A DNA stretch of 64,000 nt. Source: an uncultured Myxococcales bacterium (GTDB lineage Bacteria > Myxococcota_A > UBA9042 > GCA-2863065). Numbering within the stretch: position 1 is the first letter of the stretch; each line of letters begins with the position of its first letter. Made by a program: the position numbers and the translations under genes. Shown one piece after another: positions 11,254 to 56,436 of this stretch. Under the pieces are notes generated by a model, which did no database searches, was not told the origin of the DNA, and saw only the letters and a program-made list of their open reading frames with translations. The DNA lies in the NCBI GenBank assembly GCA_964545715.1, contig CAZJHX010000039.1, positions 4,204-68,203 of the forward strand, read 5' to 3'.

Positions 11254-11254
11254 C

Positions 11255-16205: not shown

Positions 16206-17680
<1,475 letters not shown>

Positions 17681-17694
17681 GATCCGACCTGTTG

Positions 17695-18300: not shown

Positions 18301-18322
18301 GCGCCGGTCGCGGCTCGGTGCG

Positions 18323-22225
<3,903 letters not shown>

Positions 22226-38803: not shown

Positions 38804-39568
38804 TCAAAGCACGTAGGGGATAACGGCGCGGCGCTCGGCAGGGTAGTCGTCGAACTTGTCGCGGTACCACTTGTGGTTGGTCAACGCGCGGGGGACCAGG
38901 TTGGCGAAGGTCCAAAACGCAAACGCCAGGCCGCCGATGGACCAGGTCGCGATCGCCCAGCCGGTCCACTCCACCACCTCACCGAAGTAGTTGGGGCACG
39001 AGACCCAGCGATAGAAGCCGCCCTTGGGGATCTTGTAGCCGGTCTCACCGGGCTTGCGCAGGTTGCGCAGGATGTCGTCGGCCTGCAGGTTGATGTACCA
39101 GCCGGTCAGGAAGACGGCAGCGCCGACCAGGAAGCGGGGATCGGCCAGCCACTCGGTGGGGTAGCCGCCGCTGAGCGTGAAGATCCAGCGGGCCTGCACG
39201 TAGCCGTTGCCGCAGTTGAAGATGACGCCCATCAGCATCACGAGCGCGGGCATGCGCTTGTCTTTGTCGCCTCGGATCCTGAACGGGAAGATCAGGGTGC
39301 GATTAACATAGTGCAGGTGCCACATGGCGGCGAAGACGAGCGACGCGGCGCTGGTCGGGTAGTCGCCGATCAGCCACAGCACGTCGAACACGATCAGCGT
39401 GGGGGCCTCCATGATGATCCAGCCCAGGCGGTTGGACACGGTGGGCCCCCAGCCGCCGCGCGCGTGCCGACCGTAAGGTGCCGAGATAAAGAGCAGGATC
39501 AGAAATACGCTGCCCGCGAGCGCGAACCAGCCGATGAGCAGCTGATCGTAGAAGGCTTGCTCAGCCAT
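38804..39568 (-). CDS. Steroid 5-alpha-reductase / DUF1295-family membrane protein
   Basis: Multi-TM protein. The C-terminal signature is GGFYRWVSCPNYFGEVVEWTGW. Confidence 0.65.
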   Translation of the reverse strand: MAEQAFYDQLLIGWFALAGSVFLILLFISAPYGRHARGGWGPTVSNRLGWIIMEAPTLIVFDVLWLIGDYPTSAASLVFAAMWHLHYVNRTLIFPFRIRGDKDKRMPALVMLMGVIFNCGNGYVQARWIFTLSGGYPTEWLADPRFLVGAAVFLTGWYINLQADDILRNLRKPGETGYKIPKGGFYRWVSCPNYFGEVVEWTGWAIATWSIGGLAFAFWTFANLVPRALTNHKWYRDKFDDYPAERRAVIPYVL

Positions 39569-40541
39569 TCAGCCTACCGGCCTCCTTGAACCAGGCGTAG
39601 GTGTCAGCGACGGTCTGCTGGACGGGGCGCGGGTCGAAGCCCAGCTCGTCTTTGGCTTTCTGGTTGCTGATCCGCGGGTTGCTGCGCAGCGCGTGCAGGG
39701 CGGCGCCGGTGAACTTGGCCTCGGTCCCGGTCATGCGGGCCCAGCCGACGGCGAACGGGGCGCTGGCACGCGCGAGCCACATCGGGGTGACGAATCGTGG
39801 CGCCTTCACGCCGGTGGCGGCCTCTGCGTATTGTCCGATCTCAACGGTCGAGCGCCACTCGCTGGCCAGGATATAGCGCTCGCCTTTGCGGCCGCGCGCC
39901 TCGGCGGCGAGGGCGCCGTCCACGACGTCCCGGACGTCGACCCAGGTGTATCCGCCGTCGACGAGGCCGGGCAGGCGCTTATTGTAGAGGTCGTGGAGGA
40001 CCTGCCCCATCCGCGACGGGGCGTAGTCGTGTGGGCCGATGACGCCGCACGGGTTGACGATTACGGCGTCCAGCCCGCGCTCCACGGCAGCCAGGATCTC
40101 GCGCTCGCCGGCGGCCTTGCTGCGGTCGTACGGCAGGTCGTCCTCGCCGGCGGGCTCGTTGGTCTCGTCGATCGGCTTCTCGCGCGGAAACTCATTGAGG
40201 GCGTGGGTCGAGCTGAAGTGCACCAGGCGCCGTACGCCGTTCTCCAAGCACGCCTGGGCGATATTTTTGGGCCCGCCGACGTTGACGGTCTGCAGCACAG
40301 GCTCGTTGCGACCGGAGATCGAGATGACCGCCGCCAGGTGAAAAACCACGTCCACGTCGCGGGTGGCGGCACGAACGGACTCCAAATCGGAGACATCACC
40401 GTCCACACGCTGAATGTCCAGGCCCTCCAGCGCGTCATTGTTGCCATGAATAAGGGCCCGGACGGGGCGACCACGGTCGACGAGGGTGCGCACGAGATTG
40501 CACCCGATATGTCCGTTTGCGCCGGTGACGAGGACGGTCAT
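39561..40541 (-). CDS. NAD-dependent epimerase/dehydratase family protein
   Basis: The ATG at 40541 gives MTVLVTGANGHIGCNLVRTL (GxxGxxG). The catalytic YDRSK motif (Y-x3-K) is present. The gene overlaps the downstream gene by 8 nt. Confidence 0.8.
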   Translation of the reverse strand: MTVLVTGANGHIGCNLVRTLVDRGRPVRALIHGNNDALEGLDIQRVDGDVSDLESVRAATRDVDVVFHLAAVISISGRNEPVLQTVNVGGPKNIAQACLENGVRRLVHFSSTHALNEFPREKPIDETNEPAGEDDLPYDRSKAAGEREILAAVERGLDAVIVNPCGVIGPHDYAPSRMGQVLHDLYNKRLPGLVDGGYTWVDVRDVVDGALAAEARGRKGERYILASEWRSTVEIGQYAEAATGVKAPRFVTPMWLARASAPFAVGWARMTGTEAKFTGAALHALRSNPRISNQKAKDELGFDPRPVQQTVADTYAWFKEAGRLNG

Positions 40542-40667
40542 CAGGCCGACCGTAGCCGCGCATGCGGGCGTTTGCAACCAGCGCGGTTTGACACGGCCTC
40601 CGGCGCGGGAGGTATGCTCCCGGCCCTGAGGCGTGTGGTGTTTAGAAGAGACAGGGGCGGTGATCTA

Positions 40668-43600
40668 ATGCGGTTTACTTTCTTTGCGTTGGCGACAGGT
40701 GTGGTGCTTGCGGGTTGTCCCAGTGACCCCGTTGACGGCGGGTCCCAGGGTTCGGGCGATCTGGCGGACGTCTTGTTTGACACGGCAGGCGACGCGCAGG
40801 GCGACGACGCGGGCGACACGACCGGCGACGACGACGCCGACACCACCGGCGCGGACGACACGACTGAGCCGACCGGCGACGACGACGCGGATACGGGCGA
40901 CGTGGAGCCGACCGAGCCGAGCTGCGGCGCGTACTGCAAGGTGCTGGCGCAGGCATGCACCGACGACAACGAGCAGTTCGCAGGCGAGGCGGAGTGCAAC
41001 ACCTACTGCCAGGACACCGCGCAGCTGCCGCTGGGTGCGGCCGCCGACACCGACGTGAACTCGGTGGGCTGCCGGATGTACCACGCCGGCGTGGCGTCGC
41101 AGCAGGAGCCCGAGGTGCACTGCCCGCACGCGGGACCGACCGGCGCCGATACCTGCGGCACCTGGTGCGAGAACTACTGCCACCTGGCCATGACCAACTG
41201 CACAGGCGCCAACGCGGTGTACGACACGCCGGCCGATTGCGAGGCGGCCTGTGCGGACCTGGTCGACGACGGGGAGGCCGGGGACACGGACGGCGACACC
41301 GTGCAGTGCCGCATCTATCACGCCGGCGTGGCCGGGACCAACGGCGACACCAGCGCTGAGATCCACTGCCCGCACGCCGGTCCGGACGGCGGCGGTGTGT
41401 GCGTGGACGCGATCGAGCCGGTGGACCCGACCTGTGAGGCCTACTGCGCGGCGATCACGGATGCCTGCACGGGCGACAACCTCCAGTACGCCGATGAAAC
41501 GGCCTGCCTGACCTACTGCGGCGCGTCGGCCCAGCTGCCGCTGGGTACGTCGGAGGACGTGGACGGCAACACGGTAGGCTGCCGCATCTATCACGCCGGT
41601 GTGGCGTCCACGAGCGACGAGAACGCCGCCATTCACTGCGTCCACGCGGGCCCGACCGGCGGCGACGTCTGCGGCGCGTGGTGCGACAACTACTGCCACC
41701 TGGCACAGACCAACTGCTCGGACGACAACGCGCTGTACAGCGACAGCGCGGCCTGTGACGCGGCGTGCGCGGACTTCCCGGCGACGGGCGCGGCCGGTGA
41801 CGTCGACGGTGACACCGTGCAGTGCAAGATCTACCACCTGGGTGTGGCCGGCAGCGACGGGGACGACAGCGCCGCGGTGCACTGCCCGCATGGCGGCATC
41901 GACGGCGGGGACGTCTGCGTGGCGCCCGTACTGCCGCCGACGTGCGCGGAGTACTGCGCGGCGGTCCAGGCAGCGTGCACCGACGACAACGCCCAGTATG
42001 CGTCGGAGGACGCATGCAACGCGTATTGCCAGGATTGGGCTCAGATACCGGCCGGCGCGCTGTCGGACACCGGCGGCAACACGATCGGCTGCCGCCTCTA
42101 TCACGCAGGTGTGGCCAGCGCGAGCGAGGACAACGCGGTCGTGCACTGCCCGCACGCGGGTGCGTCCGGTGGGGACGTGTGCGGCACCTGGTGTGAGAAC
42201 TACTGTCACCTGGCCGAGACCAACTGCACCGGTGACGATGCGCTGGACTTTGGTGACGGGGACTGCCCGGTCGCATGCACCGGCTACGGTGTGGACGCCG
42301 CTCCCGGTTCGGTCGACGGAGACTCGGTGCAGTGCCGCATCTATCACCTGGGTGTCGCCGGCAGCGACCCGCCCGACTCCGCCGGGGTCCACTGCCCGCA
42401 CGGCGGTCTGGACGGCGGCGGTGTCTGCGTGCCGCCACCCGAGCCGACGACATGCACGCCGATCGCCGCGCTGAGCTGCGGTGACAACCTGTCCGGGGTC
42501 TCCAACAACATGGACGGCAGCACCAACGTCATGGGCGACTACTTCTGCTCGCCGTTTGGCGACGACTACGGCACGGGCCCCGAGGCGACCTGGTCGTTTG
42601 AGGTGAGCGAGACCACGATCGTGGATATCAGCGACGGCGGCGCCGGCGAGGTCGACATCTTTTTGCTGGAGGACCACGGCAACGGGTGCGAGGCGAGCGA
42701 GGCCAGCTGTGTGTTGGGCGAGTTTGACGACCTGTCGTTTACGGCCGCTCCGGGCGCGACCTACTACGTGGTGGTGGACACCTGGGGCGGGGACGACGCG
42801 ACGTTTGATCTCTCGGTGACCTGCTGTACGCCGAGCTGCACGGACAAGGCGTGCGGCGACGACGGCTGCGGCAGCTCGTGCGGCGACTGCGGTGACGGTG
42901 AGGTGTGCAACGACGCGGGCGCGTGCGAGGAGGCGGTGCCGACGTGCGAGGACTACTGCGCGGCCGTGGCGGCGGCGTGCACGGACGACAACGCCCAATA
43001 CGCCAGCGTGGACGCGTGCTTGAACTACTGCGCAACGTGGGCGCAGCTTCCGGTCGGCTCGCTGGCGGACACGGACACAAACACGGTGGGGTGCCGCACG
43101 TACCACGCGGGCGTCGCGGCCCTCAGCGAAGACGACGCGGCGATCCACTGTCCGCACGCGGGCCCGTCGGGCGGCAACGTCTGCGGCTCCTGGTGCGACA
43201 ACTACTGCCACCTTTCGTCGGCCAACTGTACCGACGCCAACGCGCTGTATGCCGACGGCGATGCCTGCTCGGCCGCGTGCGAGGCCTTCCCGGCCGTCGG
43301 TGAGGTGGCGGACACCAGCGGCAACACGGTGCAGTGCCGCATCTATCACCTGGGCGTGGCGGGCTCGGCGCTGCCCGACTCGGCTGGCGTGCACTGTCCT
43401 CACGGGGCCGTGGACGGCGGCGGGGTCTGCGTAAAGGGCGGCTCGACGTGCGAGGACGCCATCACGGTGGGGGCCCTGCCCTACAGCGATGCGGGTGAGA
43501 CCGATACCGCCAGTGGCGACTACAGCTACAACGCAGGCGACTGCCCGGGCGAGAGCAGCGGGTGGGGCGCGGGCAGCAACGACGTGGTGTACGCGTTTAC

Positions 43601-46600
43601 GCCCGAGACCGGCGGCAATCACGACATCGAGCTGACGGGTGCGCCCGGCTTCGACAGCAACCTGTATGTGGTCACGGACTGTGGGGACATCGGGTCGACC
43701 TGTCTGGCGGCGGACGATGACATCGGCAGCAACATCACCGAGTCGATTACGCTGAACCTGACCGCGGGCGCGACCTACTACATCATCGTGGACGGCTGGA
43801 ACAACAGCGGCAACGTCTCGGGCGCGTACACGCTGACCGTGGACCGCTCGGCGCCGACCTGCGCCGAGTATTGCGCGCTGATCCAGTCCGCGTGCACGGG
43901 CGACAACGCGCAGTATGCGGACGAGGCCGTGTGCCTGACCTACTGCACCACGCAAGCGCAGCTTGTGGCGGGGGCGGCGGCGGACGTCGACGGCAACACG
44001 ATCGGGTGCCGCACCTATCACGCGGGGGTCGCCTCGCTGAGTGATGAGAACGCGGCAGTCCACTGCGCTCATGCCGGTCCGTCCGGCGGCGACGTCTGCG
44101 GGACCTGGTGCGACAACTACTGCTACCTGGCGGGCCTGAACTGCACCGGCGGCGATGCGCTGTTCGTCGACGACGGCGCGTGTGGCGCGGCGTGCGCGGA
44201 CTTTACGGACGACGCAGAGCCGGGCGCGGTCTCGGGCGACAGCGTGCAGTGCCGCATCTATCACCTGGGCGTGGCCGGCTTTGACGCCGACTCACCGGCC
44301 ATCCACTGCCCGCACGGCGGCACGGACGGCGGCGGTGTGTGCGTGGAGGCCCCGTCTGAAGGCGACACATGTGAGTCGGCTTTTGTGGTGGACGCGGCGC
44401 CCTTCTCGGCGACGGGCGATACGACCGGGGCCAACGCGGACTACGCATACGGCGACGGGGAGTGCCCCGGCGAGACCAGCGGCTGGGGCGCGGCTTCGGC
44501 CGATCAGGTCTACACGTTTACGCCCACGGCGTCGGCGCTGTACACGATCACCCTGGAGGCGGACGCCGACTTCGACAGCAACCTGTACGTCGTGAGCGAC
44601 TGCGGCGACATCGGCAGCAGCTGCCTGGCGGCGGACGACGCGATTGGGGGCGGCCAGACCGAGTCCGTCGCTGTGAACCTGACCGCCGGCACAACGTACT
44701 TCATCGTGGTAGACGGCTGGTCCAACGCCAGCGACATCGCGGGCGCGTACACGCTGTCGATCGACGGCGGAGCTCCGACCTGCGAGAGCTACTGTGCCGA
44801 TATCACCGCCGCGTGCACCGGCGACAACGCCCAATACGCGGACGCGGATGCGTGCCTGGCGTACTGCACCAACTCCCAGCTGCCGATCGGCGCCACGGGC
44901 GACGTGGACGGCAACTCGCTGGGCTGCAGGACCTACCACGCGGGCGTGGCGGCGCAGACCGACCCGGCCGTGCACTGTATCCACGCGGGTCCGTCGGGCG
45001 GCGACATCTGCGGAAGCTGGTGCGACAACTACTGCCACCTGGCGGCGAATAACTGCAGCGACGGTGACGCCCTGTTTGGGGACGACGCCGCCTGCGCGGA
45101 CGCGTGCGCGCTGTACCCGCTGAACGGTGACGCCGGCGACACGGTCGGCAACAGCGTGCAGTGCCGCATCTACCATCTGGGTGTGGCCGGGGACGACACC
45201 GGCGCGGGTCCGACCGTGCACTGCCCGCACGGCTCGATCGACGGCGGCGGCGTATGCAGCGGCCCCGGCGGGCAGACCTGCGAAGACGCGTTTGCTGCGA
45301 CCGGCGGGCTGCCGTACACGTCGGCCGGCACGACGGTGGGCAAATCCAATGACTATTCGATTCAGCCACAGTGGTGTGACCCGGATCTGCCGAGCACCTC
45401 GGGCGCGGGCTCGTCGGACGAGGCGTACGTGTTCACGGCCCCCGCGGACGGCACCTATCACGTGGATGTAGACGTCAGCTTTGACGCGCTGCTGTACGCG
45501 CTGGGCGACTGTGCGGACGCGGAGAACACCTGTCTGGGCGGGTCGGACGCGATCGGCGGCAGCGCAAACGAGCACCTGGAGCTGGACATGACGGCGGGCG
45601 AGTCGGTGTACCTGGTCGTGGACGGCTGGTCGTCCACGTCGAACATCAGCGGCGACTACAGCCTGACGATCAATGGGCTTGGCCACAACTGCGCGCTGCC
45701 GCATCCGATCTCGGAGCTGCCCTTCAGCCACACGTCGTCGACCAACGGCGTGGGCAACGACGCCAGCTACTCTGCGGGCGGCTGTCCGGGCGAGAGCTTT
45801 GGGTGGGGCGCGGGCTCCAGCGACGTGGTCTACGCGTTTACGCCGGGCGCCACGGGCGACTACAACGTGACGCTGACCGGCAACAACTTCGACAGCAACC
45901 TGTACGTGGTGACGGACTGCGGCGACATCGACGGCACCTGCGTGGGCGCCGACGACGAGGTGTGCGCCAACTGCACGGAGGAGCTGACGCTGACGTTGAA
46001 GGGCGGCACGACGTACTTCATCGTTGCGGACGGCTTCGGCAACAGCAACAACGTCAACGGGGCATACACGTTGACCGTGGACCTGGTCGGGCTGCAGGCG
46101 CCGACGTGCGAGACCTACTGCGCGGACGTGACGGCGGCCTGCACAGGCGACAACAGCCAGTTTGCCGACGAGGCCGCCTGCCTGGCCTACTGCGGCACCT
46201 GGGCGCAGCTGGACGCGGGTGAGCCGGGCGACACGGACGGCAACTCGATCGCCTGCCGCATCTACCACGCGGGGGTGGCGTCGGCCGATGAGGCGTCCGC
46301 TGCGATTCACTGCGATCACGCGGGTCCGTCCGGCGGAAACGTGTGCGGCAGCTGGTGCGAAAACTACTGCGATCTGGCGGCGACGAACTGCGCCGGAGAC
46401 AACGCGCTCTTCGCGGACGGCGACGCGTGTACGGCGGCGTGCGAGGCGTACGACGACCTGGGCGGGTCGGGCGACACCGACGGCGACACCGTGCAGTGTC
46501 GCATCTATCACCTGGGCGTGGCCGGCAGCGACGGCGACACATCGGCGGCGGTTCACTGTCCGCACGGCGGCATCGACGGCGGCGGCGTCTGCGTCTACCC

Positions 46601-49397
46601 CGGCGACAACTGCGACAACCCGTTCAGCGTCGGCGCGCTGCCGTACACAGCGACGGGCGACACCGGCCAGGCCTCACCGGCGGTGACCAACGAGTGCGTG
46701 GGCGCGACCGGCGACAACGGCGCCGGCTCAAACGACCACGTCTATGCGTTTACGCCGACGGCGGACGCGACGTACCTCATCACGCTGCAGGGGGCCTACG
46801 ACTCCCTGCTGTACGTGGCGAGCACCTGTGAGTTCTCGGGGGGCGCGTGCCTGGGCAGCGACGACAAGATCGGATCCAACCTGATCGAGGCGGTCACACT
46901 GCAGGCGACTGCGGGCACGACGTATTACATCGTGGTGGACGGCTGGAGCTCGTCGGGCAACGTCAGCGGCACGTACACGCTGACGGTGGAGGAGAAGTCG
47001 GATGTCGAGCTGACCTGCGAGTATTACTGCGGCCTGATGACGGCCAGTTGCACCGCAGACGACGCCCAGTATACGGACGAGGCAGCGTGCCTGGCCTATT
47101 GCGGAACCTGGGCCGCCTTCCCGGCGGGCACGGTGGGGGATACCGCTGTCAACACGCTGGCGTGTCGCATCACGGCGGCGACGGACAACGGCTCGGGCGC
47201 GGACTGTGCGGCGGCGGGTCCGTCGGGCGGCGACTCCTGCGGCACCTGGTGCGACAACTACTGCTATTTATCGGCGACAAACTGCTCGGGCGGCAACGCG
47301 CTGTACGCGTCCGATGCGGAGTGCCAGACGGCCTGCGACAACTTCTCAAACGGCGGGCTGCCGGGCGCGACCGACGGCGACTCCGTACAGTGTCGCATCT
47401 ACCACCTGGGTGTGGCCGGCAGCGACGGTGACACGTCGGCGGCTGTCCACTGCCCGCATGGCGCAACGGACGGCGGCGGCGTGTGTGTGGCGGCCCTTGG
47501 CGAGACCTGCGCCAACCCGTTCTTGATGGAGGGGGTGTCCTTCAGCGCGTCGGCCTCGACGGTCGGCGCCTCGGGCAACTACGGTTATGCGGCCGGCGAG
47601 TGCCCCGGCGAGAGCTCCGGCTGGGGCGCGGGATCCAGCGATCACGTGTACGCGGCGACGCCGTCGTTCGACGGGACGTGGCTGGTGACGCTGACCGGCG
47701 CAAGCTTCGACAGCAACCTGTACGTGGTCACCGACTGCGACGATATCGGGAACTCCTGCGTGGCGGCCAACGACGAGGTCTGCAGCAGCTGCACTGAGAG
47801 CGTCACGGTCGACGCGACAGCGGGCACCACGTATTACGTCATCGTCGACGGCTGGAACAACAGCAGCAACACGGCAGGCGACTACACGCTGACGGTCGAC
47901 CTCGTGGGCAACACCTGCGAGACCCCGAACGTGGTCTCCGCCCTGCCGTTCAACGCGACGGGCGACACGAACAACGCGACGGGCGACGTCAACGCGGACG
48001 GGTCTTGCGCCTCGGTGGGCGCGGGCAGCAACGACAACGTGTACTCGCTGACGGCTACGGCGGACGGGCCGGTGACGGTCACACTGGACGCGGCATACGA
48101 CTCGGCGCTGTATGTGTTGACGGACTGCGCGGATGCGGCGTCGTGTACGGCGTCGGACGACGTCATCGGAGTGGGCGTGGAGACGCTGACGTTCGATGCG
48201 ACGGCCGGCAGCACCTACTTTGTGGTCGTGGACGGCTGGAGCAACGCGAACAACGTCGCCGGCTCCTACAGCATCGAGATCACGCAAGACACGTTCAAGG
48301 GCACCGAGTACACCGTGGACATCAAGGACTTCGCGTTTGCCCCGGCGGATCTCACAATCGTGGTGGGCGACAAGGTCACCTGGGTGAACCTGGATGCGAC
48401 CGCGCACACGGCCACATCCAGCGATGACCCGCCGGTGTTCGACAGCGGCACGTTGGCCGAGAACGACACCTACTCGTTTGTGTTCGAGGAGGCCGGATCG
48501 TTTGCGTACTTCTGCGAATTCCACGCGGGTATGACCGGGACGATCACGGTGGAGGCGCCGGTGGTGCCGGGCCAGACGTGCGACGCGCCGCTGGTGGTCG
48601 ACGCCGTACCGTACAGCGCAACCGGCGACACGACCGACGCCAGCGCCGACTACAGCTACCCGGCGGGCGCGTGCCCGGGCGAGGGCGGCAGCTGGGGTGC
48701 GGCGTCCAGCGACAACGCCTATGCGTTTACGCCAACCGTGACCGGCTCGTACACCATCTCGCTGACCAACGCCGACGGCTTCGACAGCAACCTGTATGTG
48801 GTCACGGACTGCTCGGACATCGGGGCCAGCTGTCTGGGCGCCGACGACCAAATCTGCAGCGACTGCACCGAGACCGTGGTGCTGGACCTGACGGCGGGCG
48901 AGACTTACTTCATCATCGTGGACGGCTACAGCAATAACAGCAACGTGGCGGGCGCCTACACGCTGACGGTCGACCTGACCGGCGACACCTGCGCGCTGCC
49001 GTTTGCGGTGGATGCGCTGCCCTTTGACGCGACGGGCGACACGACCGGCTTCAGCAACGCGCTGGCCAGTCCAGGATCGTGCCCGGGCGACGGCGGCTGG
49101 GGCCAGGCGGCGCCGGACCATGTGTACGCGTACACGCCGGATGCGGACGGCACGATCGACGTCAGCGTCACCGGGACGGACTTCGACACGACGCTGTATG
49201 TCTTCTCGGACTGTGACGACGTGGAGAACACGTGTCTGGGCGCCGACGACGTCATCGGCAGCAACACAACCGAGAGCGTGTCGGTGGCCGTGACCGCAGG
49301 AACCACCTACTTCATCGTGGTGGACGGCTACAACAACGACGCCACGTTCGGTGTGGAAGAGGGCGCCTACGCGCTGTCGGTCACCGCAGCGCCGTAA
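40668..49397 (+). CDS. Giant (2909 aa) lipoprotein built from about 8 Cys/His-rich tandem modules, about 10 PPC-like beta-sandwich domains and one cupredoxin domain
   Basis: The signal is MRFTFFALATGVVLAGC, followed by an Asp/Thr acidic linker. The module consensus is CxxYC-x6-CTGDNAQY-x7-C-x2-YC...DTDGNTVGCRIYHAGVA...HCPHAGPSGGDVCGxWCDNYCHL...NC...C..AC...GDTVQCRIYHLGVAG...HCPHGGxDGGGVCV. PPC-like units read LPY..GDT....DY.....CPGE..GWG...D.VYAFTP...FDSNLYVVTDC.DI..C..ADD.....TE...L.LTAG.TYYI.VDGW.....G.YTLTVD. The cupredoxin domain lies at about 48290-48565. Confidence 0.75.
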   Translation: MRFTFFALATGVVLAGCPSDPVDGGSQGSGDLADVLFDTAGDAQGDDAGDTTGDDDADTTGADDTTEPTGDDDADTGDVEPTEPSCGAYCKVLAQACTDDNEQFAGEAECNTYCQDTAQLPLGAAADTDVNSVGCRMYHAGVASQQEPEVHCPHAGPTGADTCGTWCENYCHLAMTNCTGANAVYDTPADCEAACADLVDDGEAGDTDGDTVQCRIYHAGVAGTNGDTSAEIHCPHAGPDGGGVCVDAIEPVDPTCEAYCAAITDACTGDNLQYADETACLTYCGASAQLPLGTSEDVDGNTVGCRIYHAGVASTSDENAAIHCVHAGPTGGDVCGAWCDNYCHLAQTNCSDDNALYSDSAACDAACADFPATGAAGDVDGDTVQCKIYHLGVAGSDGDDSAAVHCPHGGIDGGDVCVAPVLPPTCAEYCAAVQAACTDDNAQYASEDACNAYCQDWAQIPAGALSDTGGNTIGCRLYHAGVASASEDNAVVHCPHAGASGGDVCGTWCENYCHLAETNCTGDDALDFGDGDCPVACTGYGVDAAPGSVDGDSVQCRIYHLGVAGSDPPDSAGVHCPHGGLDGGGVCVPPPEPTTCTPIAALSCGDNLSGVSNNMDGSTNVMGDYFCSPFGDDYGTGPEATWSFEVSETTIVDISDGGAGEVDIFLLEDHGNGCEASEASCVLGEFDDLSFTAAPGATYYVVVDTWGGDDATFDLSVTCCTPSCTDKACGDDGCGSSCGDCGDGEVCNDAGACEEAVPTCEDYCAAVAAACTDDNAQYASVDACLNYCATWAQLPVGSLADTDTNTVGCRTYHAGVAALSEDDAAIHCPHAGPSGGNVCGSWCDNYCHLSSANCTDANALYADGDACSAACEAFPAVGEVADTSGNTVQCRIYHLGVAGSALPDSAGVHCPHGAVDGGGVCVKGGSTCEDAITVGALPYSDAGETDTASGDYSYNAGDCPGESSGWGAGSNDVVYAFTPETGGNHDIELTGAPGFDSNLYVVTDCGDIGSTCLAADDDIGSNITESITLNLTAGATYYIIVDGWNNSGNVSGAYTLTVDRSAPTCAEYCALIQSACTGDNAQYADEAVCLTYCTTQAQLVAGAAADVDGNTIGCRTYHAGVASLSDENAAVHCAHAGPSGGDVCGTWCDNYCYLAGLNCTGGDALFVDDGACGAACADFTDDAEPGAVSGDSVQCRIYHLGVAGFDADSPAIHCPHGGTDGGGVCVEAPSEGDTCESAFVVDAAPFSATGDTTGANADYAYGDGECPGETSGWGAASADQVYTFTPTASALYTITLEADADFDSNLYVVSDCGDIGSSCLAADDAIGGGQTESVAVNLTAGTTYFIVVDGWSNASDIAGAYTLSIDGGAPTCESYCADITAACTGDNAQYADADACLAYCTNSQLPIGATGDVDGNSLGCRTYHAGVAAQTDPAVHCIHAGPSGGDICGSWCDNYCHLAANNCSDGDALFGDDAACADACALYPLNGDAGDTVGNSVQCRIYHLGVAGDDTGAGPTVHCPHGSIDGGGVCSGPGGQTCEDAFAATGGLPYTSAGTTVGKSNDYSIQPQWCDPDLPSTSGAGSSDEAYVFTAPADGTYHVDVDVSFDALLYALGDCADAENTCLGGSDAIGGSANEHLELDMTAGESVYLVVDGWSSTSNISGDYSLTINGLGHNCALPHPISELPFSHTSSTNGVGNDASYSAGGCPGESFGWGAGSSDVVYAFTPGATGDYNVTLTGNNFDSNLYVVTDCGDIDGTCVGADDEVCANCTEELTLTLKGGTTYFIVADGFGNSNNVNGAYTLTVDLVGLQAPTCETYCADVTAACTGDNSQFADEAACLAYCGTWAQLDAGEPGDTDGNSIACRIYHAGVASADEASAAIHCDHAGPSGGNVCGSWCENYCDLAATNCAGDNALFADGDACTAACEAYDDLGGSGDTDGDTVQCRIYHLGVAGSDGDTSAAVHCPHGGIDGGGVCVYPGDNCDNPFSVGALPYTATGDTGQASPAVTNECVGATGDNGAGSNDHVYAFTPTADATYLITLQGAYDSLLYVASTCEFSGGACLGSDDKIGSNLIEAVTLQATAGTTYYIVVDGWSSSGNVSGTYTLTVEEKSDVELTCEYYCGLMTASCTADDAQYTDEAACLAYCGTWAAFPAGTVGDTAVNTLACRITAATDNGSGADCAAAGPSGGDSCGTWCDNYCYLSATNCSGGNALYASDAECQTACDNFSNGGLPGATDGDSVQCRIYHLGVAGSDGDTSAAVHCPHGATDGGGVCVAALGETCANPFLMEGVSFSASASTVGASGNYGYAAGECPGESSGWGAGSSDHVYAATPSFDGTWLVTLTGASFDSNLYVVTDCDDIGNSCVAANDEVCSSCTESVTVDATAGTTYYVIVDGWNNSSNTAGDYTLTVDLVGNTCETPNVVSALPFNATGDTNNATGDVNADGSCASVGAGSNDNVYSLTATADGPVTVTLDAAYDSALYVLTDCADAASCTASDDVIGVGVETLTFDATAGSTYFVVVDGWSNANNVAGSYSIEITQDTFKGTEYTVDIKDFAFAPADLTIVVGDKVTWVNLDATAHTATSSDDPPVFDSGTLAENDTYSFVFEEAGSFAYFCEFHAGMTGTITVEAPVVPGQTCDAPLVVDAVPYSATGDTTDASADYSYPAGACPGEGGSWGAASSDNAYAFTPTVTGSYTISLTNADGFDSNLYVVTDCSDIGASCLGADDQICSDCTETVVLDLTAGETYFIIVDGYSNNSNVAGAYTLTVDLTGDTCALPFAVDALPFDATGDTTGFSNALASPGSCPGDGGWGQAAPDHVYAYTPDADGTIDVSVTGTDFDTTLYVFSDCDDVENTCLGADDVIGSNTTESVSVAVTAGTTYFIVVDGYNNDATFGVEEGAYALSVTAAP

Positions 49398-52300
49398 CGT
49401 AAAGGGCCGCCGGTCGATCCGATCGCGGCGCTGCTCCGTACCATCGGGGTGGTCGAGTTGACTTTGGGACGCGTTCCAAGGTGTAGTTCACCACCTTAAA
49501 CGGCACTACAGCGAACGCGTGGGGGCATATGCGGCGCATCTTTCTTTGCCTACCTCTGGCAGCGGCCCTGATTCTGGGCTGCCCCGGTGAGACAACGACC
49601 ACCGGCGACTCTACAACCGACACAACCGATACGGACACGACGGACACCGGAGGCGAAGACGCCGGACCGACCGGCACCGATGACGACGCCACGACGAGCA
49701 CGACGGGCGACGACGACGCGACCACGACGACGGACGACACGACGGACACGGGCGATGTGCCCGATCCGGTGGAGCCGACCTGCGCGGAGTACTGCCAGGT
49801 CATCATGGAGAGCTGCACCGGCGACAACGCGCAGTACGCCAGCGAGGCCGAGTGCACGACGGTGTGCAAGGACATCGCGCAGTGGGACGTGGGCGAGCTG
49901 GAGGACACGGACGTCAACACGGTTGGCTGCCGTCTGTACCACGCGGGTGTCGCCGCGACCGAGGAGCCGGAGGTGCACTGCTGGCACGCCGGCCCGACCG
50001 GCGGCGACTTCTGCGGAACCTGGTGCGACAACTACTGCCACCTGTCCGAGCTGATCTGCACCGGGCCTGAGGCGGAGACGCACCCGACGGCTGAGCAGTG
50101 CCAGGAGGCCTGTCTGGACTTCCGCAGCGACGGCGAGATCAACGACACCGGCGGCAACAGCGTTCAGTGCCGCCTGTACCACCTGAGCGTGGCCGGGACG
50201 AACCCGCCGAGCAGCGCGGAGCTGCATTGCCCGCACGCCGGCATCGACGGCGACGGCACCTGCGTGGACGAGCCCAAGCCGGACCCCAACTGTGAAGACT
50301 ATTGCCAGCTGATTCAGGTCGCGTGCACCGGCGACAACGCGCAGTACGCGGACGAGGCGGCGTGCATCGCGTACTGCAAGGTCGCGGGGCAGCTACCGAT
50401 CGGGACGGCGGACGACATCAAGGGCAACACGCTGGGATGTCGCCAGTACCACGCGGGCGTGGCTGTTCAGCAGCAGCCGGAGATCCACTGCGACCACGCC
50501 GGCCCGTCCGGCGGCGACGTGTGCGGCTCCTGGTGTGACAACTACTGCCATCTGTCCGGTGTGAACTGCTCGGGCGACGACGCGATCTTTGCGGATGACG
50601 CGGAGTGCGCCGCGGCGTGCGGGGACTATGCCGCCGACGGCCTGACCGGCAACGTGGACGGCGACACGGTTCAGTGCCGCATCTACCACCTGGGCGTGGC
50701 CGGCTCCGACAAGGACAACGGCACCCCGGCGATCCACTGCCCGCACGGCGGCGTGGACGGCGGCGAGGTGTGTGTGGACGAGGAGCCGCCGCCGGACCCG
50801 ACCTGCGAGGCGTATTGCGCGGCGGTCACGGCGAATTGCACGGACGGAAACGCCCAGTACGGCAGCGAGACCCAGTGCAACAACTACTGCGAGACCTGGG
50901 GCAAGCTCCCCCTGGGCGAGGGCACCGACACCAGCGGCAACACGGTTGGCTGTCGCATCTACCACGCCGGTGTGGCCGGTGGCGGCGAGGCGGAAGCGGC
51001 GATTCACTGCGCGCATGCCGGTCCCTCCGGCGGCGACGTGTGCGGTACGTACTGCGAGAACTACTGCCACCTGTCGGCGACCAACTGCACCGAGGACAAC
51101 GCGCTGTATGAGGACGACGACGGCTGCGCGACCGCGTGCGCGGACTTTGCCGCGGGCCCCGACCCGCTGGCGACCGACGGCGACTCTGTCCAGTGCCGCA
51201 TCTATCACCTGGGTGTGGCGGGCAGCGATCCGCCGGACTCCGCCGGAACACACTGCCCGCACGGCGCCATCGACGGCGGCGACGTGTGCGTCGGACCGGT
51301 CGCCGAGACCTGTGAGCCGGTGGGCGCGCTGAGCTGTGGTGATACGATCAACGGCGCCAGCAACGAGACGGGCACGCAGCTGATGAGCAGCTACCAATGC
51401 CAGGTCTTCGAGAGCGACGACTACGGCCCGGGGCTGGAGGTGGCGTACACGTTCACCACCGAGACCGACCAGCTGGTCACCGTGTCCGACACGTCCAGCG
51501 CCATGGATGTCATCGTGCTCAAGGACGAGGGCTTCGGCTGCGTCTCCACGGGTACAAGCTGCCTGGACAGCGGCACGACCAGCGCGTCGTTCGCGGCCAA
51601 GGCCGGCGTCGAGTACTTCATCGTGCTGGACGCGTATGACGGTGACACGGACACGTTCGACATCACGGTCGACTGCTGCGCGCCCACGTGCGAGGGCAAG
51701 ACCTGTGGCGACGACGGCTGTGGCGGCACCTGCGGCACGTGCGCCGAGACCGAGCTGTGCACCGACGCTGGCGTGTGCGAGGCGATCCCCGAGCCGGAGG
51801 CCGACACGTGCGACGCGGCCAACGCCGTGGGTGCGCTGCCGTTCAGCGCGGAGGCGACGACCGAGTACAACTCTGACAACTATGGCTACTCGACGGGCGC
51901 GTGCCCGGGCGAGGAGGGTGGCTGGGGCGACTCGGCGCCGGACCAGGCGTGGTCGTTTACCCCGGACGAGGGCGGCCTGTACTCGGTGGCCCTGGAGTCC
52001 AACTTTGACTCCAACCTGTACGTCGTGACCGACTGCGCCGATGTCGACGGCTCGTGCGTCGCCGGTTTCGAGGAGGTCGGCCCCAACGAGTCGCTGACCA
52101 CCTACCTGAGCGCCGGGACCACCTACTACATCATCGTGGACGGCTGGGGCTTTGACGAGGGCGGCGCGTACACGCTGAACGTGGACCTGGTTACGCCGGG
52201 CGCCACGCCGCAGTGCCAGTACTACTGCGACCTGATCCAGGCCGCGTGCACCGGCGCCAACGCCCAGTACGACAGCGTTGACAGCTGCGTCAGCTATTGC

Positions 52301-55000
52301 ACGACCTACGGTGCGCTGCCGTTGGGCGCCAACGAAGACGTGGACGGCAACACCGTGGGCTGCCGCACCTATCACGCGGGCGTCGCTGCGACGGTGGCTC
52401 CCGACGTGCACTGCGCCCATGCCGGGCCGTCCGGCGGCGACCTGTGCGGCACCTGGTGCGAGAACTACTGCCACCTGTCTGCGCAAAACTGCACGGGCGA
52501 CAACGAGCTGTTCGCGGACGACGGCGCGTGCGCGGCTGCGTGTGACGAGTACGCGACCACGGGCCTGCCCGGTGACACCGGCGGCGCCACGGTCCAGTGC
52601 AAGATCTACCACCTGGGCGTGGCGGGCAACGCGGATGCCGGCGGCGGCGACGTGCACTGCTCGCACGGCGGCGTGGACGGCGATGAGGTGTGCGTGGCGG
52701 CGACGGGCGGCAACGGCGACAGCTGCGACTCGCCCTTCATTATCGGCGCCCTGCCCTACTCCAAGACTGCGGACACGACCAGCGCCAGCAGCGAGGTGCA
52801 GAGCGAGTGCAAGAAGCTCTTCAACGGGTCGGCCTCCAACGAGCATGTGTACAAGCTGACGGCCGCTGAGGACGGCGACTACGTCTTTACGCTGGTCGCG
52901 GAGCACGACTCTCTGCTGTACGTGGTGACCGACTGCTCCGGCGCGGGCACCACGTGCCTGGCCGCGGACGACGAGTTCGGCAAGAACCTGACCGAGACCG
53001 TGACGGTGACGTTGAAGGCCGACGAGGAGGTCTTCGTGGTGGTGGACGGCTACTCGGCCGCGGAGAACCAGGCCGGCGAGTACACGCTGACGGTGGAGGT
53101 GCTGCCGCCGTTCGGCGTTACGTGCGAGTACTACTGCGCGTCGATCACGTCGACGTGTACCGGGGACAACGCCCAATACGCGGACGAGCAGGCGTGTCTG
53201 GACTACTGCAAGGTCGCCGGCGCCTTCCCCGAGGGCACCATCGACGACGTGGACGGCAACAGCCTGGGCTGCCGCGTCTATCACGCGGGTGTGGCCGGCC
53301 AGGTCTCGCCCGAGGTTCACTGCCCGCACGCCGGTCCGTCCGGCGCCGACACCTGCGGCTCTTGGTGCGACAACTACTGCCACCTGGCGCAGCAGAACTG
53401 CACGGGCGGCAACGAGCTTTACGCCAACGAGGCCGAGTGCCTGTCCGCGTGCGACACATTCGACACGGGCGGTGAGCCCGGCGACACCAGTGGCGGCACC
53501 GCGCAGTGCAAGATCTATCACCTGGGCGTGGCCGGCTCGGACGGCGACACCAGCGCCGCGATCCACTGTCCGCACGGCGGCGCTGACGGCGGCGGCATCT
53601 GTGTGGCGGCGCCGGGCGACAGCTGCTCCAACGCCATCGCCATCGAGAGCGTGCCGTTCAACACGGTCGGCGATACCGGCAGCGGCACCCCGCAAGTGTC
53701 CGTCGGCTGCGCCGAGGCCAGCGCCAAGGGTGCGGGCTCCAGCGACCTGGTCTACTCCTTCGCCCCGCCGGCCGAGGGCGAGTACGTGATCACGCTGAAC
53801 GCGGACCACGACTCTCTGCTGTACGTGACCACCGACTGCTCAGGCGACGAGGAGAGCTGCGTGGCCACCGACGACGTGCTGGGCGGCGGCAAAACCGAGA
53901 CGCTGACGCTGACGCTGAGCGCCGACACCACGTACTACATCGTGGTGGACGGCTGGGCGGACTTCATGGACGTCTCCGGCGCCTTCACGCTGTCCGTGAC
54001 CGCGGTGGGCGGCGCCGAGCTGACGTGCGAGTACTACTGCGCGTCGATCATGGCCGCTTGCACCGGGGATGACGCGCAGTACGCCGATGCGGACGCGTGC
54101 AACAGCTACTGCAACAAGTACGGCGCCTTCCCCGAGGGGACGCTGGACGACGTGGACGGCAACACGCTGGGCTGCCGGATCTACCACGCCGGCGTGGCCG
54201 GGACTGTGGCCCCGGACGTGCACTGCGCACACGCCGGTCCGTCCGGCGGCGACATCTGCGGAACGTGGTGTGAGAACTACTGCGACCTGGCGGAGAAGAA
54301 CTGCACCGGCGGCGACGCGCTGTTTGCCGACAACGGCTCCTGCATGAGCACGTGCAACGGCTACTCCGACGACGGCGCCCCCGGCGACACGGGCGGTGAC
54401 ACCGTGCAGTGCCGCATCTATCACCTGGGTGTGGCCGGCAACGGCGACGCGGGCGGCGCAACGACTCACTGCCCGCACGGCGACGCGGACGGCGGCGGTG
54501 TGTGTGTCGACGACACCACGCCCACCCTGGACGTGAGCGGCTGGACGGTGATCCAGAACGGCGGCGAGAAGACCTTCGAGTTCCCGGCCGGCACCGTCGT
54601 GAAGGAGGGGGACTACATCGTGATCGGGCGAAACGCATCGCAGGAGGACTTCACCCTGTACTGGGGCGTGAACTTCTCCGGCGGCGTGCATTACTTCGAC
54701 GCCAACAACCAGTTCCCGATAGTCAACGGCGACGAGTCCTTCGATTTGCTGGACGCGACCGACACGCTGGTGGACGGTCCCTCGGCAAACCTGAAGTCGG
54801 GCTTCAAGCTGCAGCGCAAGCAGCCGGTCGGCGCCGCCAGCGACGCCGGCTCATGGGACCAGCAGAGCGCGGCCACCGGCGTGGGTCCGGCGCCAAACCC
54901 GGGTACCGGCCAGACGCCGGGCGTGGACAACGGCCTCTACCTCAGCGAGCTGAGCGACGCCAACGGGTCGGGCAACTTCATCTACGAGTTTGTCGAGATC
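40900..55000 (+). repeat. About 14 kb of imperfect tandem repetition with a period of roughly 450 bp, underlying the two giant genes
   Basis: Near-identical nucleotide blocks recur throughout, for example tgccgcatctatcacctgggtgtggccggcagcgacgg, cactgcccgcacggcgg and tggtgcgacaactactgccacctg. Confidence 0.85.
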
Positions 55001-55336
55001 TACGTCTCGGGCCTCAACGGCGACGTGCCGATCGTCGAGCCGGAGCCCGGCCCGGTCGAGGTCGAGGTAAAGAACTTTGCGTTCAGCCCGGCCGACATCA
55101 CGGTCTCGGTGGGCACGACGGTGACCTGGACGTTTTTGGACGGCTCCAGTCACACCGTGACCAGCACCGACAACAAGACGTCCAACCAGACGACCAACGA
55201 TCCGCTGGACAGCCCGTTCTTGAAGAGCAGCGACGCGCCCGACAACACGTACAGCTACACCTTCACCGAGGCAGGCCTGTTCACGTATCGGTGCATCCCG
55301 CACGCCAGCATGAAGGGCAGCGTCAACGTCGAGTAG
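49529..55336 (+). CDS. Giant (1935 aa) paralogous lipoprotein with about 7 Cys/His-rich modules, PPC-like domains, a lamin-tail domain (LTD) and a C-terminal cupredoxin domain
   Basis: The signal is MRRIFLCLPLAAALILGCPGETTTTG, followed by a Thr/Asp linker. The module consensus is the same as in the upstream giant. The LTD-like stretch is at about 54530-54850 (WTVIQNGGEKTFEFPAGTVVKEGDYIVIG). The cupredoxin domain is at about 55050-55333 with ligands H (SSHTVTS), C-x2-H (YRCIPHASM) and M. Confidence 0.75.
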   Translation: MRRIFLCLPLAAALILGCPGETTTTGDSTTDTTDTDTTDTGGEDAGPTGTDDDATTSTTGDDDATTTTDDTTDTGDVPDPVEPTCAEYCQVIMESCTGDNAQYASEAECTTVCKDIAQWDVGELEDTDVNTVGCRLYHAGVAATEEPEVHCWHAGPTGGDFCGTWCDNYCHLSELICTGPEAETHPTAEQCQEACLDFRSDGEINDTGGNSVQCRLYHLSVAGTNPPSSAELHCPHAGIDGDGTCVDEPKPDPNCEDYCQLIQVACTGDNAQYADEAACIAYCKVAGQLPIGTADDIKGNTLGCRQYHAGVAVQQQPEIHCDHAGPSGGDVCGSWCDNYCHLSGVNCSGDDAIFADDAECAAACGDYAADGLTGNVDGDTVQCRIYHLGVAGSDKDNGTPAIHCPHGGVDGGEVCVDEEPPPDPTCEAYCAAVTANCTDGNAQYGSETQCNNYCETWGKLPLGEGTDTSGNTVGCRIYHAGVAGGGEAEAAIHCAHAGPSGGDVCGTYCENYCHLSATNCTEDNALYEDDDGCATACADFAAGPDPLATDGDSVQCRIYHLGVAGSDPPDSAGTHCPHGAIDGGDVCVGPVAETCEPVGALSCGDTINGASNETGTQLMSSYQCQVFESDDYGPGLEVAYTFTTETDQLVTVSDTSSAMDVIVLKDEGFGCVSTGTSCLDSGTTSASFAAKAGVEYFIVLDAYDGDTDTFDITVDCCAPTCEGKTCGDDGCGGTCGTCAETELCTDAGVCEAIPEPEADTCDAANAVGALPFSAEATTEYNSDNYGYSTGACPGEEGGWGDSAPDQAWSFTPDEGGLYSVALESNFDSNLYVVTDCADVDGSCVAGFEEVGPNESLTTYLSAGTTYYIIVDGWGFDEGGAYTLNVDLVTPGATPQCQYYCDLIQAACTGANAQYDSVDSCVSYCTTYGALPLGANEDVDGNTVGCRTYHAGVAATVAPDVHCAHAGPSGGDLCGTWCENYCHLSAQNCTGDNELFADDGACAAACDEYATTGLPGDTGGATVQCKIYHLGVAGNADAGGGDVHCSHGGVDGDEVCVAATGGNGDSCDSPFIIGALPYSKTADTTSASSEVQSECKKLFNGSASNEHVYKLTAAEDGDYVFTLVAEHDSLLYVVTDCSGAGTTCLAADDEFGKNLTETVTVTLKADEEVFVVVDGYSAAENQAGEYTLTVEVLPPFGVTCEYYCASITSTCTGDNAQYADEQACLDYCKVAGAFPEGTIDDVDGNSLGCRVYHAGVAGQVSPEVHCPHAGPSGADTCGSWCDNYCHLAQQNCTGGNELYANEAECLSACDTFDTGGEPGDTSGGTAQCKIYHLGVAGSDGDTSAAIHCPHGGADGGGICVAAPGDSCSNAIAIESVPFNTVGDTGSGTPQVSVGCAEASAKGAGSSDLVYSFAPPAEGEYVITLNADHDSLLYVTTDCSGDEESCVATDDVLGGGKTETLTLTLSADTTYYIVVDGWADFMDVSGAFTLSVTAVGGAELTCEYYCASIMAACTGDDAQYADADACNSYCNKYGAFPEGTLDDVDGNTLGCRIYHAGVAGTVAPDVHCAHAGPSGGDICGTWCENYCDLAEKNCTGGDALFADNGSCMSTCNGYSDDGAPGDTGGDTVQCRIYHLGVAGNGDAGGATTHCPHGDADGGGVCVDDTTPTLDVSGWTVIQNGGEKTFEFPAGTVVKEGDYIVIGRNASQEDFTLYWGVNFSGGVHYFDANNQFPIVNGDESFDLLDATDTLVDGPSANLKSGFKLQRKQPVGAASDAGSWDQQSAATGVGPAPNPGTGQTPGVDNGLYLSELSDANGSGNFIYEFVEIYVSGLNGDVPIVEPEPGPVEVEVKNFAFSPADITVSVGTTVTWTFLDGSSHTVTSTDNKTSNQTTNDPLDSPFLKSSDAPDNTYSYTFTEAGLFTYRCIPHASMKGSVNVE

Positions 55337-55339
55337 GCG

Positions 55340-56436
55340 TTGGCTGTCTAGGACGCCATCGTCATCGGCACGGGCGGCGCAGGAAGCGCGGCCCTGACCA
55401 CCTCGCGCGACGCGGCCTGCGCACGCTGGGCCTGGATAGATTCCAGCCGGGCCACGCCCGCGGCAGCTCGCATGGCGACACCCGCGTCATTCGCCAGTGC
55501 TACTTCGAGCACCCGGACTACATCCCGCTACTGCTGCGCGCCTACGAGCTGTGGGCGGACCTGGAGCAGCGGACCGCCCGGCGGCTGTATCAACGCACCG
55601 GCGTCCTGGAGATCGGCCCAACCGACGGCATGGTGCTCCCGGGCGTGATGGCGGCGGCGGCCCGGCACAACCTGTCCATCGACTCGTTGGAGCCGGCGAA
55701 TATACGCCGCCGCTTCCCGGGGTTTGACGTACCGGAAGGCATGGCGGGCGTCTTCGAGCACGACGCCGGCATTCTGTATGTGGAGGACTGCGTGCTGGCT
55801 CACACGCGGGCGGCGCAGGCTGCCGGCGCTCAGTTGGAGATCGGGCCGGCCGTACTCGGCTTCGAGCGCACGTCGAGCGGCTTTCGGGTCGCGACCGAGT
55901 CGACGACGCACGAGTGCACGCAGCTGGTCGTGACCCCGGGCGCGTGGGCCGCTGATCTGCTGGGCATGCTGGGTCTGCGGCTGGAGGTCAGGCGCAAGGT
56001 GCTGCTGTGGTACGGCGCTGAGCGGTACGAGACGTCGCCGGTCTACCTGTACGAGCTGCCAAGCGGCATCTTCTACGGCTTTCCACAGGTTGACGGCGCC
56101 GTGAAAGTGGCGGAACACTCGGGCGGTGGACCGGCGGGCGATCCGCTGAATCTCGACCGCGAGCTGCATCGGGCCGATGTCGACCCTGTCGAGCGTTTTC
56201 TGTCCGACCACCTGCCGGGCGCGGACGCCACGGACCGTCAACGTCATGCGGTCTGCATGTACACGATGACCCCGGACGACCACTTCGTCATCGACCACGA
56301 CGACGGCCTGGCCTACGCCTGCGGTCTGAGCGGCCACGGCTTCAAGTTTGCGTCGGTCCTGGGAGAGATCCTGGCCGATCTGGCGACGACCGGCGCCACG
56401 TCGCTGCCGATCGGGATGTTCTCCAGCGCTCGCTGA
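55340..56436 (+). pseudogene. solA: N-methyl-L-tryptophan oxidase / sarcosine oxidase family (SolA-like) FAD oxidoreductase, disrupted by a premature TAG at codon 4 and a 1-nt frameshift
   Basis: TTG at 55340 gives M-A-V-TAG(55349)-DAIVIGTGGAGSAAL, which aligns to E. coli SolA MKYDLIIIGSGSVGAAAG. After about 55396 the homology continues in the -1 frame (ARRGLRTLGLDRFQPGHARGSSHGDTRVIRQCY...). The C-terminus GLSGHGFKFASVLGEI is near-identical to E. coli SolA. Confidence 0.55.

Follow-up and report, generated by a model that had tools for sequence, protein, structure and literature searches.

Predicted type-1 copper domains in two giant BfoA_C lipoproteins of a marine myxobacterium: a possible copper alternative to a tethered cytochrome c

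Introduction

What part might a blue copper domain play inside a giant, cysteine-rich lipoprotein? The question is raised by a 64,000-nucleotide stretch of DNA from an uncultured Myxococcales bacterium (contig CAZJHX010000039.1; G+C 67%), called the window below, to which all positions refer. Two long plus-strand genes, here named G1 and G2, are marked in it by codon-position G+C. An earlier note on this DNA had proposed that both products contain a complete type-1 copper (cupredoxin) domain, and the peptides that it quoted are found in frame in these two open reading frames (ORFs). The domains are, with little room for doubt, genuine type-1 copper cupredoxins. In G2, moreover, the domain occupies the slot that is taken in many related giants by a C-terminal cytochrome c, and both domains probably act as tethered one-electron carriers equivalent to that cytochrome, a role read from sequence comparison and domain position. 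The evidence for this reading is set out below, followed by the scaffold on which the domains are carried, the alternatives that have to be weighed against it and the genes that surround the pair.

Two complete cupredoxin domains with an amicyanin-type ligand loop

The Pfam family PF00127, for which the gathering score is 21.2 bits, matches the G1 domain with 46.2 bits (E 6e-12) and the G2 domain with 53.1 bits (E 4.5e-14). It is also found when the whole proteins are scanned, and it is already present in the public annotation of these exact proteins. The interval 48286-48570 that the earlier note had given for G1 encloses the domain, and its start lies one base out of frame, which is trivial. 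Searches of PDB sequences with phmmer return amicyanin, plastocyanin and the tethered cupredoxins of copper enzymes (E 1e-10 to 1e-14); a Nitrosopumilus multicopper oxidase provides the best match of the G1 domain through its C-terminal cupredoxin (9cck, E 1.6e-14), and further matches include plastocyanins, amicyanins (to E 3e-10) and 5fc9, a cupredoxin of Nitrosopumilus.

In the PDB sequence alignments, the histidine of '…AHTAT' and '…SHTVT' pairs with the amicyanin histidine in 'PHN', and the peptides 'C-E-F-H-A-G-M' and 'C-I-P-H-A-S-M' pair with amicyanin 'C-T-P-H-P-F-M'. Both motifs thus fall on the copper ligands of amicyanin, which we take to be H53, C92, H95 and M98, and all four ligands are therefore at canonical positions: H2580, C2616, H2619 and M2622 in G1, and H1875, C1922, H1925 and M1928 in G2. 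The ligand loop is of the short amicyanin type, C-x2-H-x2-M, in both domains, whereas the spacing in plastocyanin and pseudoazurin is longer, C-x2-H-x4-M. The full ligand set described in the earlier note therefore stands, but its plastocyanin- or pseudoazurin-like spacing has to be replaced by an amicyanin-like one. Across an alignment of 43 sequences that includes the G1 domain, the two histidines and the cysteine are invariant and the methionine is kept in at least 90%. The AlphaFold2 (AF2) model built from this alignment, which covers the G1 cupredoxin only, has seven strands and a pLDDT of 95.9, and in Foldseek it superposes on amicyanin and plastocyanin with a TMq of 0.81-0.83 at E 1e-8. 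The claim of a complete type-1 copper domain with all four ligands in each giant is thus borne out by the family score and the PDB alignments for both, and by the fold model for G1, and the conserved ligand set suggests that both would bind copper.

The closest known likeness is to amicyanin and other short-loop blue copper proteins of PF00127, which share the fold, about 30% identity, the four ligands, the C-x2-H-x2-M loop and an extracytoplasmic location. These are free 11-kDa carriers, whereas the domains described here are single units within lipoproteins of 2909 and 1935 amino acids (aa). Both also miss the cut-off of the NCBIfam amicyanin equivalog TIGR02657 (36.0 bits for G1 and 42.5 bits for G2, against 110.2), and the scanned genes of the window gave no sign of a methylamine dehydrogenase context. 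By these comparisons, the domains would work like amicyanin yet would not be orthologues of it.

A cupredoxin in the slot of a C-terminal cytochrome c

The relatives of the giants point to what such a domain may be doing. A search with the whole of G2 returned 46 large multi-BfoA_C proteins, which form the census used here. A cupredoxin is present in five of them (G1, G2, P0060, P0062 and P0067), while in 20 of the 46 the very C-terminus is formed by a domain of about 95 aa that a motif scan recognises by an invariant C-x-x-C-H, a Met-Pro and a C-terminal helix with Trp. Compared with the PDB, the profile of this domain matches cytochrome c555, the cytochrome domain of hydrazine synthase alpha (over positions 7-94), CcoP and cytochrome c6. 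Of 19 members, 18 are matched at E<=1 by Pfam Cytochrome_CBB3 (best score 28.6 bits, cut-off 27), and PSCyt1 matches three. From these profile and motif matches, the domain is assigned to the class-I cytochromes c. A cytochrome c and a cupredoxin are never combined in one protein of the census (0/46), and no CxxCH haem-attachment motif is found in G1 or G2.

The exchange can be followed directly by aligning G2 with P0045, to which it is 55% identical over 86% of its length. In BLASTP, residues 1667-1828 of G2 align with residues 2402-2555 of P0045 through the lamin-tail domain (LTD), and the alignment ends at '…NFIYEFVEIYVSG' in G2 and '…NFKYEFVELYVSG' in P0045; what follows is a cupredoxin in G2 and a cytochrome c in P0045. 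The G2 cupredoxin thus occupies the slot of the C-terminal cytochrome c.

Two further proteins show how BfoA_C modules may be combined with redox domains. P0001 has one BfoA_C module and a cytochrome c. P0070 (1480 aa, from an ENA metagenome) is the richest redox-domain combination seen with BfoA_C: a lipoprotein with DUF7282 domains, three BfoA_C modules, a Bac_globin match (37 bits) in a region that reads by eye as two truncated-globin-like stretches, and a C-terminal cytochrome c.

Ligand retention and origin of the cupredoxin domains

The LTD-cupredoxin cassette of G2 recurs at the C-terminus of P0060, P0062 and P0339, where H…C-x2-H-x2-M is likewise retained; these are the only orthologous cassettes found. 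Their cupredoxins score 67-75 bits against that of G2, which scores 202 bits against itself. Among 717 related cupredoxin domains, the four ligands are kept in 548 and the 7-residue Cys-to-Met loop in 575. About a quarter thus lack the full ligands, and ligand decay therefore occurs where the site is not needed; by this comparison, retention of the ligands in the divergent cassettes appears meaningful. The C-terminus of P0067 is a more distantly related cupredoxin with a longer Cys-to-Met loop (YYCTFHSSTSGSGM), which phmmer did not detect with the G1 domain as query.

The cupredoxins of G1 and G2 are 45% identical, and 214 domain instances from unrelated proteins outscore the G2 domain against that of G1. 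By these scores, the two do not appear to be recent duplicates, and cupredoxins therefore seem to have been recruited to the BfoA_C scaffold more than once. When GTDB representative genomes were searched with the C-terminus of G2, only LTD-like matches were obtained (Acidobacteriota and Myxococcales metagenome-assembled genomes, MAGs) and no cupredoxin orthologues. A search of representatives with the short-loop cupredoxin itself gave 33,126 clusters at E<=1e-3. The top matches reach 3670 aa in length and 12 copies of the domain; PKD domains occur in some of them and a type IX secretion system (T9SS) tail in one. P0188, P0190 and P0218 are giant secreted proteins of this sort, with 2500-3700 aa and 8-12 short-loop cupredoxin stretches together with PKD. 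Such poly-cupredoxin giants (P0188, 3670 aa, with 10-12 copies and PKD; P0218 with the T9SS tail) resemble G1 and G2 in belonging to the short-loop subfamily and in being very large surface proteins, but they carry their cupredoxins in tandem and lack BfoA_C, whereas G1 and G2 have one copy each. Cupredoxins in giant secreted proteins are ordinary by themselves.

Genes and domain architecture of the giants

The mechanical ORF for G1 begins at 39693, and its first 325 codons overlap a minus-strand gene of the NAD-epimerase / 3-beta-hydroxysteroid dehydrogenase (3-beta-HSD) type; the true start is therefore set at the ATG at 40668, which gives the N-terminus MRFTFFALATGVVLAGC. A lipoprotein signal peptide with a lipobox cysteine is found at both N-termini, LAGC in G1 (…VLAGC) and ILGC in G2 (…LILGC), and these signals place the two proteins, by prediction, outside the cytoplasm. 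Both are extremely acidic (D+E 14.6% and K+R 1.0% in G1) and contain about 6.5% Cys. They are already in public databases, P0044 being identical to G1 and P0042 to G2. Their relatives are labelled as Myxococcota or Myxococcales MAGs, several of them from marine assemblies including TARA, and the two are taken to be paralogous, lipid-anchored extracytoplasmic proteins of a marine member of the Myxococcota.

G1 contains eight BfoA_C modules, about ten PPC-like domains and one internal cupredoxin. Self-comparison gives their order as the lipobox, an acidic linker, three modules, a PPC variant with a CGDDGCGG-type knot and five more modules alternating with PPC-like domains, with the cupredoxin between PPC copies near the C-terminus. 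In G2, which has the same N-terminal plan, six modules and four PPC-like domains precede the LTD and a terminal cupredoxin. The PPC family PF04151 scores 68.1 bits in G1 against a threshold of 25.9, and 27.4 bits in the variant domain; the whole-protein score of G2, 17.3 bits, is below the threshold, and its copies were assigned by their similarity to those of G1. These repeats are beta-sandwiches of about 130 aa, and repeat mapping places ten of them in G1 and four in G2. The earlier description of the giants as otherwise made of Cys/His repeats does not hold, then, since about half of each protein is PPC-type beta-sandwich and G2 has an LTD in addition.

The BfoA_C module

The Cys/His repeats proper are 14 modules of about 165 aa, each made of two homologous halves of 82 aa with eight cysteines and a Y-H...H-C-x-H cluster. 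They belong to PF28386 (BfoA_C) according to the precomputed Pfam annotation of P0042, P0044 and homologues. A Pfam copy that lacks the PF28386 model gave no match to the modules even at E=10, and NCBIfam gave none in the whole proteins. A profile search with the module matches at least 869 sequence clusters, and the 120 best-scoring ones are without exception standalone proteins (about 170-330 aa), unnamed or annotated as 'hypothetical', with Myxococcota lineages as the named sources. Identity between the modules of the two giants and the aligned single-module proteins is 33-64%. Such standalone members (about 200 aa, myxobacterial) share the PF28386 module, are mostly lipoproteins and typically have one copy, whereas G1 and G2 combine six to eight with PPC, LTD and cupredoxin domains. 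No conserved gene neighbourhood was found around five standalone genes, nor a recurrent partner gene beside two cupredoxin-bearing giants. One further protein, P0074 (2058 aa), has 19 BfoA_C half-domains and comes from a eukprot transcriptome, probably as bacterial contamination.

The AF2 model of the module is all-helical, with eight helices, four per half, and a pLDDT of 96.9; no relative of it was found in the PDB by sequence or by fold. Conservation was followed in 804 half-domains from 187 proteins, among which the eight cysteines are nearly invariant. Cys1 and Cys5 are lost only jointly (20/20), which fits a twin-CX3C helical hairpin held by disulfides; the eight may be read as four structural disulfides, for which direct support concerns the C1-C5 pair. 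The Tyr-His … His-Cys-x-His cluster, with Y56, H57, H71 and H74 as its residues in the AF2 model, is kept in 667 of the 804 halves. When the 785 halves that could be scored at all three histidines are considered, 701 have all of them and 19, 36 and 29 lack one, two and three, respectively, and in this pattern the three-His cluster appears to behave as one unit, with loss that is all-or-nothing. In the window the Tyr/His3 cluster is intact in 27 of 28 halves. The remaining one, a half-module of G1 (aa 2116-2192), may be seen as a natural 'site-dead' control within the same protein. Conservation of this kind suggests that the cluster is probably a separate functional site, for metal or haem. That the modules themselves carry redox cofactors is a tentative extension, and a doubtful one. 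The motif 'C-D-N-Y-C-H' was considered as a CX3CH haem c attachment site and rejected, its His being replaced by Q, D or Y in homologues.

A probable tethered electron carrier and its alternatives

In the model favoured here, each giant would be a scaffold in which BfoA_C modules alternate with PPC-type spacer or binding domains. Each half-module would be a disulfide-held four-helix unit with its Tyr/His3 cluster as a putative metal or haem site, and the cupredoxin would shuttle electrons between the remainder of the protein and a putative partner, periplasmic or external. In G2 and its cassette relatives, the part played by haem c in 20 of the 46 relatives would fall to type-1 copper. Precedents exist for such an arrangement. 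Three-domain NirK and related multicopper oxidases, two of which (6hbe, the Thermus scotoductus NirK, and 9cck) are among the best PDB matches of the G1 and G2 cupredoxins, likewise carry a C-terminal cupredoxin on a larger protein. Other NirKs carry a tethered cytochrome c domain instead, and the tethered domain may thus be haem c or type-1 copper within one family; the body of these enzymes is a multicopper oxidase, whereas that of G1 and G2 is an array of BfoA_C and PPC domains. The interchange of plastocyanin and cytochrome c6 is a further precedent for the substitution of copper for iron, in which one and the same function is served by either a class-I cytochrome c or a cupredoxin. Both proteins are among the PDB matches of the respective domains. 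They are free proteins that are expressed alternatively, whereas the domains of the giants are covalently fused and occur in different paralogues or orthologues.

Several observations weigh against this reading or limit its reach. The absence of any protein with both domains would arise by chance with a probability of about 0.05, as computed from the census counts, which is a modest statistic, and 21 of the 46 proteins have neither redox domain, some of them being truncated or having divergent CxxCH domains. The argument from position is direct for G2 only, the G1 cupredoxin being internal. No gene for a redox partner is found next to the giants in the window, nor beside P0062 or P0067. Finally, no paper on a BfoA protein was found, the literature queries giving only the 'bacterial foraging optimization algorithm' and names of Bacillus strains.

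The alternatives differ in what they make of the copper site. Cupredoxins might serve as structural or adhesive beta-sandwich modules, like PPC and LTD, without a redox role, the giants then being adhesins or matrix proteins. Such a view draws on the surface-protein domains (PPC, LTD, Cys knots) and the extreme acidity that dominate the giants, on the commonness of huge secreted proteins with up to 12 cupredoxins, PKD domains and T9SS tails, on the ligand-less quarter of related domains and on the lack of an adjoining redox partner gene. It is nevertheless unlikely: the four ligands are intact in G1, in G2 and in three orthologous cassettes, and a structural module does not explain why haem c, with an invariant CxxCH and Met-Pro, stands in that position in 20 relatives. 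A role in copper handling or sequestration is less probable still. Copper at the cell surface would in that case be buffered or trafficked by the cupredoxins together with the Cys/His modules, a view for which one may cite the 27 conserved His3/Tyr clusters of the two giants and two genes elsewhere in the window, one PHM-like and the other encoding 1300 aa with MopE-type metal-binding motifs. In amicyanin and plastocyanin, however, a buried His-Cys-His-Met site serves electron transfer and not trafficking, and its positional equivalent in relatives is a cytochrome c, which has no copper role. The cysteines, moreover, behave as structural disulfides and not as free thiolates (the joint loss of C1 and C5), and the neighbours cited for copper handling are 18-30 kb away and functionally unrelated, cytochrome bd being without copper.

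It is very improbable that the fusions arose by metagenome mis-assembly or by read-through of separate genes. The data do come from metagenome assembly, in which long similar repeats can confuse assemblers, but the identical 1935-aa G2 (P0042) was recovered on four contigs, in JGI and ENA assemblies that stem from different samples, and the genes are therefore no one-off artefact; the same LTD-cupredoxin end recurs in P0060, P0062 and P0339 from other assemblies, and reading frame and codon bias are continuous across the domains. Altogether, the His-Cys-His-Met site is positionally interchangeable with haem c, which argues for electron transfer rather than copper trafficking. The earlier suggestion of an electron-transfer or copper-handling role can accordingly be narrowed: its extracytoplasmic electron-transfer half is favoured by the lipoprotein signals and by the cytochrome c of 20 of the 46 relatives, and its copper-handling half is not.

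Genomic surroundings

The positions of the domains and of neighbouring genes are collected in Table 1. The earlier note had counted three copper-related genes nearby, a description that does not fit them: cytochrome bd is a haem-only oxidase, the FAD oxidase of the DAO family is a flavoprotein, and the PHM-like match reaches 24 bits. The PHM-like gene and cydA, moreover, are separated from G1 by 24-30 kb and by many unrelated genes. The note's description of the FAD oxidase as a pseudogene looks right. Its GxGxxG motif 'DAIVIGTGGAGSAAL' (55343-55390) is in the frame of G2, directly after a TAG and without a start codon, and the remainder is in another frame; to judge from these frames, the gene looks like a frameshifted pseudogene, or like a sequencing error common to several assemblies. 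The idea of an intact gene, raised by the full-length Pfam match, was dropped, the motif being in another frame.

Upstream of G1, the steroid-type reductase and dehydrogenase genes suggest, from their family matches, a possible modification of sterols in this myxobacterium. Downstream of the giants are genes for a lectin-domain lipoprotein, a basic secreted protein and an acyl-CoA synthetase. Large repeat proteins are common in the window as a whole. In a related locus (L058), the gene after that of the cupredoxin giant P0062 also encodes a giant (9563-19237; 3224 aa, with Dicty_CTDC and cohesin matches); the arrangement resembles the G1-G2 tandem, and giants appear to occur in pairs.

Table 1. 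Positions in the window of the two giant genes, their domains and neighbouring genes
Feature	Positions	Strand	Description and basis
G1	40668-49397	+	2909-aa giant lipoprotein; ORF and start position, codon-position G+C, domain map
G1 reference BfoA_C module (PF28386)	41424-41924	+	Two 82-aa halves; internal repeat mapping, AF2
Other G1 BfoA_C modules	40914-41408, 41934-42434, 42936-43436, 43851-44348, 44772-45260, 46098-46598, 47010-47492	+	Repeat mapping
Degenerate half-module of G1	47013-47243	+	aa 2116-2192; without Tyr and the three His, all 8 Cys kept
G1 PPC-like pair 3' of the cupredoxin	48576-49382	+	Two domains; PF04151, repeat mapping
Other G1 PPC-like domains	42456-42827, 43443-43844, 44367-44765, 45276-45671, 45708-46082, 46608-46991, 47505-47900, 47913-48281	+	Repeat mapping
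G1 cupredoxin	48303-48557	+	aa 2546-2630; PF00127, PDB alignments, AF2, Foldseek
G1 ligand codons	H 48405-48407, C 48513-48515, H 48522-48524, M 48531-48533	+	
G2	49529-55336	+	1935-aa giant lipoprotein, N-terminus MRRIFLCLPLAAALILGC; ORF, domain map
Six G2 BfoA_C modules (span 49772-54511)	49772-50269, 50282-50779, 50795-51295, 52205-52699, 53117-53608, 54020-54511	+	
G2 PPC-like domains	51317-51646, 51806-52186, 52721-53098, 53621-53998	+	Interleaved with the modules
G2 lamin-tail domain	54524-55018	+	aa 1666-1830; PF00932, 34.6 bits; 43% identity to the P0045 LTD
G2 cupredoxin	55055-55333	+	aa 1843-1935, protein C-terminus; PF00127, amicyanin alignment, orthologous cassettes
G2 ligand codons	H 55151-55153, C 55292-55294, H 55301-55303, M 55310-55312	+	
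DAO-family FAD oxidoreductase gene	55291-56436	+	Overlaps the G2 stop; full-length Pfam match, 139 bits
3-beta-hydroxysteroid dehydrogenase / NAD-epimerase family gene	39564-40664	-	Immediately upstream of G1
3-oxo-5-alpha-steroid 4-dehydrogenase	38807-39568	-	182 bits; upstream of G1
Large Cys-rich secreted protein	18326-22225	-	1300 aa; five MopE-type motifs (PF11617, 113 bits); 18 kb upstream of G1
cydA	13651-15237		Haem-only oxidase (cytochrome bd)
PHM-like gene	9434-10771		24 bits only; about 30 kb upstream of G1
746-aa protein	6265-8502	-	Dictyostelium-type Cys repeats, Golvesin_C domain
1359-aa Ser/Thr kinase	703-4779	+	Weak RHS-repeat and PDZ matches

Meaning for the BfoA_C family

The cupredoxin domain itself is of a known kind; what is new is its place as a copper alternative to the terminal cytochrome c on a BfoA_C array. 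A wider reading, which we regard as possible and no better than that, is that the multi-BfoA_C giants form an unrecognised class of extracytoplasmic redox proteins, in which arrays of Tyr/His3 cofactors (27 sites in G1 and G2) would be wired to a terminal carrier and haem c would have been replaced by copper in a marine lineage as an iron-sparing swap; iron limitation as the driver of such a swap is attractive but speculative, and cytochrome c is found in marine relatives as well (for example P0064). The occurrence of either haem c or blue copper, and never both, gives a first functional handle on the BfoA_C module. For a fold that is confidently modelled and has no solved relative, it offers a testable hypothesis, namely that these proteins would serve in extracytoplasmic electron transfer, with copper standing in for iron in a marine lineage.

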